Source: Sphaerodactylus townsendi (Eukaryota). From it: a stretch of 64,000 nt of DNA. Location: assembly GCF_021028975.2 (NCBI RefSeq), contig NC_059425.1:26350001-26414000 (forward strand). Direction: 5' to 3'. A program made the position numbers and the translations under genes. Shown here one piece after another: positions 52,701-55,617 of the stretch. Position 1 is the stretch's first letter, and every line of letters starts with the position of its first letter. The notes under the pieces were generated by a model, which was not told the origin of the DNA, searched no databases, and saw nothing but the letters and a program-made list of their open reading frames with translations.

Positions 52701-55617
52701 GGACCATGGAGCTGCTGTCCCCCAACATCCCACACACCTGCATGGCAGCTGTAGTCATAGTCTGCACCATGGGAGCCATGGACGTCTATTTGGTGGAACA
52801 GAGTGCTGGAGCCCGACGGCTGGGTGTCTGCACACTGGCCCTGGCTGGAGACCTATTCTTTCTCCTGGTGTTGCGCTTTGCAACAGTGTGGCTGGGTGGT
52901 GAGGCGCGCCTGGCCCAGCGGGGGTATGCCATGGTGCTGTGGTTTCTCTTTGCGTTTGCCCTGGAGATCAAACTCTACTTCATTTACCAGCATTATGCGA
53001 CGGAAGGGCAGGCTCCTGATCCACTAGCCCGGCATACCCTGACCCTACTGCTGTCCATCTGCATCCCTGCTCTCTATACAGTGCTGGGAGCCACCGAGCT
53101 GCTGGCCCAGGCCACCACCAGCTTCCGCAAGAAAGATGAACTACGCAGGCGCCTCTTTTGGGTGGTTTTGGACCTGCTGGATGTGTTGGAGATCCAAGCC
53201 AGCCTCTGGGAGCCGCAGCAGCGAGTGCTGCCCTTGTGGGCAGAGGGCCTGACGTTCTTCTACTGCTACGGCCTCCTGCTGGTACTCCCTTGTGTGTCGC
53301 TGAGTGAGCTGGGTGTACAGAACCCCCACTGCGGCACACTCTACCCCCTGCTGAGTCTGGCAAGCGTGAATGTGGCCACCATCTTCATCCGTGGGGGGCT
53401 GCTCCTTCTCTGCCATGACCAGCGCATCTCCTCCATCTTCATGGGGAAAAACTTCCTAGCCATTGCCTTGAAGAGCTGTGCGGTATTGCAGCACCACACA
53501 GGCACCCAAGCCGCAAGGGAAACATGCCACAGATGTCCCACATGCAACCAGTCCCTTGGACGCACCCGGACCACAGGTGAGCAGCAACACAGACACGTCC
53601 AAACCACAGCAGAAATACGCAACAGACAGTCCACAGCTGACTACAGTCATGAATATGCTCAAACCGCAGCTGGCCAGCCCAGCAAACATACTGCAAATGA
53701 CCAGCTACACGAACAGGCTAAAGCCAAAGCCAGTCACAGAAATCCCACAGTTGAAATGCCCCTGGAACAGGCCCAGGTGACAGATGAACAGTCCCACAGA
53801 AGTGCTCAAACCACAGACCACCAGCTGCATAGACACTGCTGCATCAAAGAATCCAGCCACTACAGACACACCATCCAGCACTCACCGAGAGATCCAACCA
53901 CCATTGGTCCCACCACTGACAGAGCACTCAGAACAGGTTATCGGGTGCAGCTCAAGTCTGTATGGAATGGTCCATGATACACTTTCATAGGGATGCTGCC
54001 TGACAAAAAAAAAACACACCTGCCTTTGCACACCTTGAGACCTACCGGGAGGGCAGAATCACAGTTTAGAGACACAGCTACCAGCAAGGCTGTCAGCCAC
54101 CTAGATTAGTGGGCACAAAATCCAAATACACCAATGTTTATTCCACTCACAGCACTAAACACAGGCATCTGGTTGGCCGCAAGTGTTCTGTCATCACTTG
54201 TGGCAGGAGGGGAGGTCAATGACCAATCAGGATGCTCCAACTAGTCTTAGTGCAGAGAATTCAAATCAACAGGTCATCTCCAAATCACTTACACAAGAGA
54301 TTTACAGTGTTGTTCTAGAAATATGTCTTGTATGGACTGCCCTTTTGCAATCTTAATCTCCAAAATATTCCACTACACACTGCACAGCCAATCTATAAAA
54401 TTTAATGGGAGTGGCCAGGGAACAGTCCTGCAAAGATACTGTCCTTCTAACTTTCAAATGTTTAATCTACCTAATCCCTAAAAGGAAGCCACACCCACTA
54501 CCATGCCCCTTCTGCTACAAGAGGAAGTCGATATTGCAACTAACCCAAGCACATGCTGCAATTACACCATTTTGCTTACAGCTGGATCAGGGTGGTTTTG
54601 GGGTCAGGGAGACCTGGCCCCCAGTGGGTGAAGCAATAAAGAAGAGTGCCTCTGAGCATATCGAGAGTGCCTTTTTCTTAACAATCAGTCACCACACTAA
54701 ATGCCTACCTACATCTGGGGTTAAATGACAAACCCGATCAGGACATATTCCACAAAGGCTCAAGGTCCTGTGCCAGATGCTTCAATCATTCATTACTGGT
54801 TGTGCACATATTAATTCTAGCAAAGGACTGCTCCATGAAATTAATACAATGAACATTTTTCTAAAAATACACACCCACAGAGCACACTGTTGATCTTTGT
54901 AGTTCACTACCACAGTAAGTGATAATGACAAAAAGGGATTCAGAAAACACATGCTTAATTTATAAACCAAGGATCACAGAACTCCCAGGAGAGAGAGTGC
55001 AGCTACCAGCAAATCCCATGGCACTGAACTGCCATCAGCCTACAACAAGTCCTTCCAAGTGTATCCTCTGTACATAGAGTTGCCAACAACCTGATCAGGC
55101 TTATTGAGACTTCACTTATCAGCTAATATTATTTACATTCATCTGCCAATTCCCACATATTAAGTGTCTGTTGAGAGAAGAGGACATTTTTTCACCAGGT
55201 TGTTGGCAACCTTATATATATGCGACCCATCAGCAATGCAGGAACAAACCAACAAAAGCCTATGTTTGCCAAGAAGCCAATCCATGTACCAATATTATTA
55301 CTAAAAACATTTCTATGCTGCACTTCCACCCAATTCAGGTTCCCCAGGATGTGGCCAGTTTGCAATTGAAAACACCATACTATGCTCAAGTTTAATAACC
55401 GTTAAGCTTGAGCTCAATGACCATTAAGCTTGAGCTCATACTACGCTCAAGCTTAATATCTTGTCATTCCATCATGATCCCATCCCATGCATACCTGCCC
55501 TAGGGTAGGCCCTAAGGGTGGTCCTGGAACAGCTTGCCCTGCTCGAATGATAGTCCGGATCACACCTGCAGGGTCCACTTTCTGTACTGCTTTGGCAGCA
55601 CGGGAGACCTTCGACAT
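40666..55617 (-). CDS. MRPL11: Mitochondrial ribosomal protein L11 (uL11m); join complement(55495-55617,48163-48258,44964-45057,42528-42687,40666-40771), 579 nt, 192 aa
   Basis: [161 protein letters not shown]; uL11 motifs; exon sizes 123/96/94/160/106; all introns GT-AG. Confidence 0.97.
40944..42335 (-). mobile_element. L2 LINE 3' portion (frameshifted RT) in the last MRPL11 intron
   Basis: [36 protein letters not shown] and [20 protein letters not shown]; (TTTA)n 3' tail at ~40947-40975. Confidence 0.88.
42528..42687 (-). CDS. MRPL11: MRPL11 coding exon 4
   Basis: 160 nt; [16 protein letters not shown]...[16 protein letters not shown] donor. Confidence 0.95.
42768..42909. mobile_element. 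hAT MITE with perfect TIRs and TSD
   Basis: CAGGGGTCTGCAACCTG..CAGGTTGCAGACCCCTG; 8-bp TSD GTCTAGCC. Confidence 0.9.
44062..44217 (+). mobile_element. 5S rRNA-derived SINE (5S/Sauria-type); related copy at ~56462-56618
   Basis: ATCTCGTCAGATCTCAGAAACCAAGCA..CCTGGCTGGTACTTGGGTGGGAGACC resembles the 5S internal control region, followed by GGCAATAGCAAGCCACCTCT. Confidence 0.7.
44221..44677. mobile_element. PIF/Harbinger-like MITE with long internal hairpins; related partial copy at 60934-61090
   Basis: Imperfect TIRs GGCTGTTTCCGCATGGG / CCCATGTGGAAAGGGCC; 3-bp TSD AAG; hairpin 44381-44540. Confidence 0.65.
44964..45057 (-). CDS. MRPL11: MRPL11 coding exon 3
   Basis: 94 nt; poly-T plus CTGCAG acceptor; GTAAG donor. 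Confidence 0.94.
46770..47545. repeat. GC-rich palindromic element (probable MITE) with a near-perfect hairpin at 46959-47109
   Basis: ~70-bp inverted arms CTGGGAGAAAGCCCCTGTCCCT../..GGGACAGGGGCTTTCTCCCAG. Confidence 0.6.
48163..48258 (-). CDS. MRPL11: MRPL11 coding exon 2
   Basis: 96 nt; [32 protein letters not shown]. Confidence 0.95.
48338..48927 (+). mobile_element. Probable solo LTR (590 bp)
   Basis: TGT...ACA termini; flanks ACTCC/ACTCT (5-bp TSD, one mismatch); ATTAAA near the 3' end. Confidence 0.55.
49700..51220. mobile_element. Patchwork of CR1 LINE RT fragments in both orientations
   Basis: Plus 50497-50850 encodes [15 protein letters not shown], [11 protein letters not shown] and [14 protein letters not shown] peptides; minus-strand CR1-like pieces at ~49710-50050 and ~50930-51220. 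Confidence 0.75.
52706..53977 (+). CDS. TMEM121-like multi-pass membrane protein (TMEM121/CECR6 family), 423 aa, nested antisense in an MRPL11 intron
   Basis: Residues ~8-262 are colinear with TMEM121 ([92 protein letters not shown]); Kozak ACCATGG; pyrimidine tract plus AG acceptor at 52700-52701; AATAAA at 54635-54640. Confidence 0.9.
   Translation: MELLSPNIPHTCMAAVVIVCTMGAMDVYLVEQSAGARRLGVCTLALAGDLFFLLVLRFATVWLGGEARLAQRGYAMVLWFLFAFALEIKLYFIYQHYATEGQAPDPLARHTLTLLLSICIPALYTVLGATELLAQATTSFRKKDELRRRLFWVVLDLLDVLEIQASLWEPQQRVLPLWAEGLTFFYCYGLLLVLPCVSLSELGVQNPHCGTLYPLLSLASVNVATIFIRGGLLLLCHDQRISSIFMGKNFLAIALKSCAVLQHHTGTQAARETCHRCPTCNQSLGRTRTTGEQQHRHVQTTAEIRNRQSTADYSHEYAQTAAGQPSKHTANDQLHEQAKAKASHRNPTVEMPLEQAQVTDEQSHRSAQTTDHQLHRHCCIKESSHYRHTIQHSPRDPTTIGPTTDRALRTGYRVQLKSVWNGP
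55495..55617 (-). CDS. MRPL11: MRPL11 first coding exon (exon starts at 55640 after a T-rich CAG acceptor)
   Basis: ACCATGT start; 123 nt; PGPPLGP motif; GTATGC donor. Confidence 0.95.

Follow-up and report, generated by a model that had tools for sequence, protein, structure and literature searches.

The window analysed here, a 64,000-nt stretch of the Sphaerodactylus townsendi genome, contains a member of the TMEM121 family nested within MRPL11. We consider it probable that this is an intact, conserved gene orthologous to fish 'tmem265', likely one of three copies derived from the early vertebrate whole-genome duplications and likely paired with tmem264. In the following, clade A denotes TMEM121, clade B denotes tmem264/TMEM121L, and clade C denotes the window copy together with fish 'tmem265'.

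An open reading frame nested in an MRPL11 intron

The coding sequence is a 423-aa ORF (52706–53977, + strand) in a single coding exon. Re-reading the sequence confirmed what the initial annotation had described, namely an ORF uninterrupted by stops, an ATG in Kozak context (GGACCATGG) and a splice acceptor 4 nt upstream. None of 500 simulated 7.2-kb introns contained an ATG-initiated ORF of at least 423 aa (mean 113, maximum 238 aa). The previously proposed donor at 52141 (GGCAGG|GTAAGA) and polyadenylation signal at 54635 are also present, each as the sole match in its interval: the former is the only strong-donor-pattern match on the + strand from 48259 to 52702, and the latter the only AWTAAA from the ORF stop to the next MRPL11 exon (Table 1). 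In the RefSeq X1 model (P0155) of the related gecko Paroedura, an exon matching approximately 51731–51953 of the window joins the same acceptor as the window ORF; the frame of this 5' exon is broken by a stop in the window sequence.

The MRPL11 coding exons were located on the − strand by matches to the Pfam L11 model, and the 48258–55495 junction across a GT-AG intron was found in public contigs of run X4 and was absent from runs X1–X3. Because the X4 contigs join these positions, the ORF, the donor and the polyadenylation signal all lie inside the MRPL11 intron, and the antisense nesting between coding exons 1 and 2 claimed in the initial annotation is thereby borne out. The X4 contigs, which carry neither strand nor level, cover the ORF and the rest of the intron equally; one of them differs from the window by a synonymous C>T at 53084. 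No splice joint into 52702 occurred among the 15 of 311 X4 joints listed. Several RefSeq isoforms of the clade C gene exist in relatives; such models rest on RNA data and point to the gene being transcribed.

In a skink gene model, the antisense of MRPL11 exon 2 sits upstream of the ORF (E 6e-9). The nested layout therefore extends beyond geckos, and a nested antisense coding gene is common to gecko and skink. The P0151 model, which runs into MRPL11 antisense sequence, was excluded as independent support because its first 110 residues are the same as those of the window protein. To our knowledge, human MRPL11 is without a nested gene.

Table 1. Coordinates of features in the window.
Feature	Position	Strand	Basis or remark
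Pyrimidine tract and AG acceptor	52680..52701	+	ends 4 nt before ORF ATG; same phase in Paroedura X1 model P0155
Candidate donor CAGG|GTAAGA, exon end 52141	52138..52147	+	candidate only
AATAAA, candidate polyadenylation signal	54635..54640	+	T-rich run 3' of signal
Candidate upstream non-coding exon	51751..51957	+	homologous to 5' exon of Paroedura X1 model; ends inferred
Membrane domain, residues 1–266, eight predicted helices	52706..53503	+	model pLDDT 83, pTM 0.82
Lizard-specific His/Gln/Thr-rich tail, ~160 aa, fast evolving	53492..53977	+	protein comparison
MRPL11 first coding exon	55495..55640	−	start codon at 55617; site resembling an acceptor before 55640
Host intron of MRPL11, 7,236 nt, GT-AG	48259..55494	−	spliced contigs
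MRPL11 second coding exon	48163..48258	−	Pfam L11 match, spliced contigs
NPAS4 bHLH exon, syntenic marker	17607..17810	−	35 kb from ORF

Three family copies and the reach of clade C

As the initial annotation had recognised, the protein belongs to the TMEM121 family yet is diverged from TMEM121. It matches PF14997 (CECR6/TMEM121 family) with 161.5 bits against a cut-off of 25, over positions 1–193 of the 194 in the model, and in the membrane part it is 56% identical to the gecko's own TMEM121 and 58% to tmem264. We identified three TMEM121-type genes in the genome, all with a single coding exon: TMEM121 on C5, tmem264/TMEM121L at C1:47.03M, and the window copy, which is accordingly not the sole TMEM121 of this species. 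The initial annotation had missed a second extra paralogue, tmem264/TMEM121L beside NPAS4L. TMEM121B/CECR6 was not found in the gecko genome with a search filter that may miss it, and the trees took in no TMEM121B/CECR6.

A phylogeny with TMEM121 and fish paralogues, proposed earlier as a check, recovered clade C as a separate group with support of 99 (SH-aLRT, quick tree, 52 rows) and 93/99 (25 rows). It comprises lizard, turtle, salamander, caecilian, coelacanth, bichir, sturgeon, gar, bowfin and teleost proteins; all 19 of its rows, including proteins named TMEM265, group together in the quick tree, in which long branches come together within clade C. The quick 52-row tree did not recover clade B as monophyletic, probably because of row P0138, which was omitted from later trees. 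Approximately unbiased (AU) tests rejected grouping the window copy with gecko TMEM121 (p 1e-11) or with gecko tmem264 (p 2e-8), as well as nesting clade C in bony-vertebrate TMEM121 (7e-5). The window copy thus lies outside clades A and B, and the genomic places of both are taken by other genes: that of TMEM121 by TEDC1 by the C5 copy, and that of tmem264 by NPAS4L/RRP36 by the C1:47.03M copy.

Both a B and a C copy are present in each of bichir, bowfin, sturgeon and coelacanth, and cartilaginous fish are present in clades A and B. No clade C member from cartilaginous fishes was among the matches listed, a thin sampling with two named proteins, and none from mammals, birds, crocodilians, snakes or frogs was among them either. 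The initial annotation had proposed retention in reptiles and loss in mammals. Loss from mammals is likely, judging from this absence; retention was not confined to reptiles, as clade C also occurs in non-frog amphibians, coelacanth and ray-finned fishes.

Teleost clade C proteins carry the UniRef names 'tmem265' or si:ch73-271e23.6; human TMEM265 is an unrelated, IFITM-like gene. The teleost and window proteins share the signature PDPLAR(K/H/R)TLTLLLS and approximately 45–50% identity, and differ by the 160-aa tail on the lizard side. The clade B gene is likewise a non-mammalian extra copy adjoining an NPAS4-type gene. It differs from clade C in its locus, in having been kept in birds, crocodilians and snakes, and in its slower evolution (gecko–salamander identity of 82% vs 57% for clade C).

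Probable genome doubling and the likely partner of the window gene

The duplication is placed after the tunicates, whose proteins are approximately equidistant from clades A, B and C, and before the ray-fin/lobe-fin split, with both B and C copies on either side. The proposal of a whole-genome-duplication paralogue therefore stands in part: clade C is separate and ancient and genome doubling is its best reading, whereas the likelier partner is tmem264 of the NPAS4/NPAS4L blocks rather than 14q32 TMEM121, the trees leaving the pairing undecided. Of the three rootings, the one joining B and C came out best in five of six runs and was never significantly better than both rivals, and alternatives to B+C kept AU values of at least 0.06 in one four-set run.

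The neighbourhoods bear on this pairing. TEDC1 lies approximately 215 kb from the C5 copy, and RRP36 and an NPAS4-type bHLH exon lie within 95 kb of tmem264. PMC7604627 (Fig. 1 legend) gives the order NPAS4L-RRP36-TMEM121L for chicken, Anolis and zebrafish, and tmem264 has been placed distal to npas4l (PMC9432843). Near the window copy are an SLC29 gene (approximately 70 kb away) and a GAL3ST-type gene (approximately 30 kb away). NPAS4-type genes are found within 100 kb of two of the three family copies, and the B56 family is near both, at 0.2 Mb from tmem264 and 1.9 Mb from the window copy. The neighbours at the duplicate loci were matched to particular paralogues by human gene order, not by trees. 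The relative orientation is divergent in the NPAS4 block and convergent in the NPAS4L block. The Pfam scan covered 138 of 280 top-ranked ORFs in the window and 20 neighbouring stretches, and found few genes.

It is unlikely that the window gene is instead the genome-doubling partner of 14q32 TMEM121, with tmem264 descended from the first doubling's other half. This differs in pairing only, and part of its weight is already contained in the preferred explanation. The fast constrained run favoured A+C, which was not rejected in any of four sets, and 14q32 and 11q13 share paralogue pairs; in the longer search A+C fell to an AU of 0.04, and NPAS4-type genes flank B and C, with no third strong NPAS4-type match found in the genome. 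Support for the 14q32/11q13 pairs invoked as context in the initial annotation was not obtained around gecko TMEM121, on whose contig there was no B56 or PACS match.

There is also a slim chance that gene and orthology are as described but that the copy arose through a segmental duplication, at the base of bony vertebrates, that took in the NPAS4/NPAS4L-tmem264 block. This arises because the matches listed contained no clade C protein from sharks or rays and because placing clade C as sister to bony-vertebrate tmem264 alone was not rejected (AU 0.10). Paired neighbours reaching past NPAS4 (B56, SLC29 and PACS families) argue against it, as do the free trees, which put the shark protein with clade B and clade C outside. 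A recent retrocopy or decaying TMEM121 duplicate that landed in the MRPL11 intron, as one coding exon and a long branch might suggest, is refuted by the AU tests above, and is at odds with the single coding exon of all three copies, the fish orthologues, the constrained membrane part and the divergence from both paralogues (dS 1.1–2.1, dN 0.18–0.34, near saturation).

Protein architecture, possible function and significance

Residues D159, P195, R229, K248 and N249, invariant in all 68 family rows, are retained by the window protein. Among 15 lizard-type proteins, identity is 80–97% in the membrane part vs 31–86% in the tail, which has a conserved motif of the QLKS(V/L)W type at its end; on these comparisons the membrane part is under constraint. 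The tail showed short weak repeats and no array, and a tandem-repeat origin was rejected; an internal repeat sought by HHalign was not above controls. The lizard protein evolved approximately twice as fast as its paralogues when measured against lamprey, a difference not significant against Ciona, and the basic residue that precedes the first helix in TMEM121 is gone from it, as are N-terminal prolines. Given this faster evolution and these losses, its function may have changed.

TMEM121/Hole (human 14q32) shares PF14997, a single coding exon and the invariant residues with the window protein, and differs in clade, locus and conservation (gecko–frog identity of 96% vs 57% for gecko–salamander clade C). 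Gecko TMEM121 also lacks the mammalian polyproline tail. PMC9366253 describes six membrane helices in TMEM121/Hole, vs eight in our model of the window protein, and an N-terminal ERK D-domain plus a C-terminal motif rich in proline.

We envisage a product that would be an eight-helix membrane protein retaining the buried polar residues of the family; since these are kept, the same core job as TMEM121 is somewhat the likelier outcome. That the window copy damps ERK/MAPK signalling, as one laboratory reports for TMEM121, is an analogy we regard as doubtful. The gene would have a weak, CpG-poor promoter of its own within the MRPL11 intron, its expression may be confined to few tissues, and its transcript would carry at least one non-coding 5' exon. 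The interference with MRPL11 and the regulation by NPAS4 enhancers suggested in the initial annotation are conjectural. Redundancy with two slower-evolving sister copies may have permitted its faster evolution and likely repeated loss.

We think it improbable that the family instead functions as a lipid scramblase or as a pathway for small solutes, with a distant likeness to the XK-related proteins, and that its ERK effects are indirect. The invariant charged and polar residues lie within predicted helices across 68 sequences, rat XKR9 aligned to 238 of 266 residues (Z 7.8, rmsd 5.6), more than any other of the 50 alignments listed, and TMEM26 is the nearest other family by language-model features (0.84, a lead only). 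Yet this Z-score ranked 35th, a value that common helical arrangements also reach, and HHalign against thin gecko XKR exon profiles did no better than shuffled controls. Foldseek with the predicted model gave no match at E<=0.001, a second look also gave nothing clear, and no solved structure related by sequence was found. The joint proposal that NPAS4-tmem265 and NPAS4L-tmem264 are twin doubling blocks, that mammals keep one of three TMEM121 copies, that the family is an XKR-like scramblase and that the nested copy is checked by its housekeeping host's transcription would be very unlikely to hold in full.

The clade C gene is apparently undescribed in print: we found no description of the paralogue in the literature, on which supplements may bear, no paper on fish tmem265 or si:ch73-271e23.6, and none on mrpl11 and npas4 synteny. 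The window gene is already annotated in databases, as 'TMEM121-like'. No new mechanism is opened, as nesting is common, with 17% of human genes hosting another gene (PMC11694760), and the loss of copies made by genome doubling is familiar; the likely mammalian loss would be a common fate, not a new kind of gene. The Kazald quartet (PMC12955574) is likewise an unnoticed genome-doubling family whose members were repeatedly lost and mislabelled in databases, although with four members and expression data, compared with three known from sequence here. In public records the clade C copy goes by plain 'TMEM121' in Anolis, loggerhead turtle, gar, bichir, bowfin and many teleosts, whereas in alligator and teleosts this label is given to tmem264-clade proteins; cross-species studies of TMEM121 can therefore compare the wrong genes. 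The present analysis sets this hidden paralogy right and provides, in the window gene, a second marker for the NPAS4 and cloche (NPAS4L) loci as duplicate blocks.

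The open frame and its host intron

The window copy is read from the plus strand as 423 codons without a stop, and chance frames of such length arose in the host intron in 0 of 500 simulations. Its ATG has Kozak context with a splice acceptor 4 nt upstream, as the initial annotation had described. The proposed antisense nesting within an MRPL11 intron was also borne out: L11 model matches fall on the minus strand, and contigs of X4, one of four sequencing runs, contain three MRPL11 splice joints with GT-AG ends (none of which was seen in the other three runs). Based on these joints, the frame, the upstream donor and the AATAAA signal all lie within one 7,236-nt intron. 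Because an acceptor-like site precedes the MRPL11 ATG exon, this intron is probably the second of the transcript. A short 22-nt repeat, in two partly palindromic copies, is located just inside it.

A RefSeq model from Paroedura has a 5′ exon that matches upstream of the window frame and is spliced to its acceptor; multiple isoforms are annotated in geckos, turtles, a caecilian, coelacanth and sturgeon. When coding exon 2 of MRPL11 is translated antisense, it matches the N-terminal extension of skink model P0017 (68%, E 6e-9), so order and orientation are common to gecko and skinks, and full nesting in skinks is likely. The region upstream of the frame is CpG-poor (o/e 0.04–0.23), which would fit a tissue-restricted promoter. 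According to one report, nested genes tend towards lower and more tissue-specific expression than their hosts, the majority of pairs having no expression relationship (PMC11694760).

Coordinates of features in the window (unlabelled), neighbouring stretches (L) and gecko contigs (C)
Feature	Position	Strand	Remark
Window copy frame	52706-53977	+	
Upstream donor	52141		
AATAAA	54635		
Paroedura 5′ exon match	51731-51953		
MRPL11	42527-55640	-	
L11 model matches	55.49-55.56 kb; 48.16-48.26 kb	-	
Additional MRPL11 exons	~45.0 kb; ~42.6 kb	-	
X4 joints	55495->48258; 48163->45057; 44963->42686	-	first spans window copy
22-nt repeat	55394-55450		
NPAS4	13213-17810	-	
Galactose-3-O-sulfotransferase exon	L034:8553-9734 (C1:26.433M)		20 kb past window
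Reverse transcriptase frame	L033:5289-7448 (C1:26.42M)		720 codons
tmem264 copy	C1:47.03M		58%
TMEM121 copy	C5:19.27M		56%
PACS family	C1:47.22-47.24M; C1:14.25M; C14:33.4M		
TMEM151 family	C1189:5012-6250; C2:124.88M; C1:14.52M		intact

Family copies and their neighbours

The window protein matches PF14997, and three agreeing searches of the gecko genome identified three family loci, which rules out the window copy as the only TMEM121. NPAS4 is 35 kb from the window copy, which is flanked by an SLC29 gene and, on the opposite side, by a GAL3ST-type gene; human 11q13 has this order. The sulfotransferase exon is presumably GAL3ST3-like by synteny. The reverse transcriptase frame is probably a LINE element. 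NPAS4 and MRPL11 share a strand here whereas the human genes are convergent, indicating a local inversion in one lineage.

The C5 copy groups with mammalian TMEM121 and has TEDC1 ~215 kb away. RRP36 and another NPAS4-type bHLH exon are found near the C1 copy. The arrangement corresponds to the NPAS4L-RRP36-TMEM121L order reported in chicken, Anolis and zebrafish and described as missing in mammals (PMC7604627); zebrafish tmem264 is distal to npas4l (PMC9432843). Both NPAS4-type loci thus have a family gene within 100 kb, for which rough arithmetic gives a chance of ~1e-7. One of three PACS-family genes is situated only 0.2 Mb away from tmem264 and NPAS4L; mammals are known to have two, and this third one may be another copy lost with the NPAS4L-tmem264 block. 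Mammals likewise have two known TMEM151-family genes; the gecko match on a small contig may represent either a haplotype or an additional paralogue. No TMEM121B/CECR6 was found with PF14997 in the whole gecko genome (3 matches among 11 candidates); the filter may have missed this gene, or it may be missing from the assembly or have been lost.

Phylogeny and distribution

The closest named proteins are gecko "TMEM121-like" records. By best BLAST group, the 334 collected proteins comprise 133 in clade C, 92 in B, and 46 in A; 37 proteins could not be assigned, and 26 had no match at 1e-20. The phylogeny with fish paralogues suggested initially was run on subsets (67, 52, 25 and 23–28 rows), and the window gene fell with fish proteins in its own clade C. 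Clade A holds TMEM121 of mammals, frogs, ray and teleost 121Ab; clade B, tmem264 of birds, alligator, snake, turtles, amphibians, lungfish, coelacanth, shark and ray-fins; clade C, the window gene with lizards, turtles, salamanders, caecilians, coelacanth, bichir, sturgeon, gar, bowfin and teleosts, the last named TMEM265 or si:ch73-271e23.6 in UniRef. A quick 52-row tree supported clade C at 99 and split B; in a careful 25-row tree all three groups were monophyletic (C at 93/99, the others at 93/87 and 97/98). AU tests rejected a sister relationship of the window protein to either gecko TMEM121 or gecko tmem264, and with it a retrocopy within the gecko TMEM121 lineage, as well as clade C within bony-vertebrate A; clade C as sister of bony-vertebrate B was not rejected (0.10). 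When tunicates and jawless fishes served as outgroups, B+C came out best in five of six runs, never decisively, and A+C in a fast run.

Database names are mixed across clades (P0049, P0085, P0149, P0187, P0127, P0015): the alligator and many teleost "TMEM121" records belong with tmem264, and Anolis "TMEM121" (P0015) falls in clade C. Clade B seems to include two copies in teleosts. Lampreys have two family copies (P0190/P0265, P0196/P0194), one grouping with a hagfish protein.

By best BLAST group, all named records from mammals (14/14) and frogs (5/5) are in clade A, and those from birds (7/7) and the sole crocodilian, snake and lungfish proteins in B. Each protein search scored 8,000 candidates and listed the best 120 of 187, 363 and 286 matches; two used clade C profiles, so a clade C member in any of these groups should rank high. 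No monotreme was among the matches listed. The clade C gene was likely lost in mammals, as proposed, but retention extends beyond lizards and turtles to salamanders, caecilians, coelacanth and ray-fins, and the mammalian loss may be one of several.

Sequence change and proposed function

In comparison with 15 lizard-type orthologues, identity is 80–97% in the membrane part and 31–86% in the tail; this long tail, rich in His/Gln/Thr and with an end motif that is conserved, was added in lizards. Gecko–salamander identity is 57% in clade C and 82% in tmem264, and gecko–frog TMEM121 identity is 96%. Judged by sequence, the window gene is a fast-evolving copy; relative-rate tests were significant with lamprey (44 vs 22, 50 vs 23), not with Ciona.

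The predicted model has eight helices, and 5/5 residues invariant in a 68-row alignment reaching invertebrates are kept. The window copy rather probably would perform the core job of TMEM121 under relaxed constraint. TMEM121 is reported to damp ERK/MAPK signalling (PMC9366253); such damping by the window copy is unlikely because it has lost the basic residue at its N-terminus. A role like that of a scramblase is a weak alternative: the longest of the listed structural alignments was with rat XKR9, but its score was middling and sequence profiles offered no support.

Public annotation already includes the gene as "TMEM121-like", and its fish orthologue is named; our literature search returned no account of the three-member family, the MRPL11 nesting or the NPAS4-tmem265/NPAS4L-tmem264 pairing. 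The Kazald quartet is a precedent of comparable kind (PMC12955574). The window gene is real and ancient and, as initially read, likely an ohnologue.
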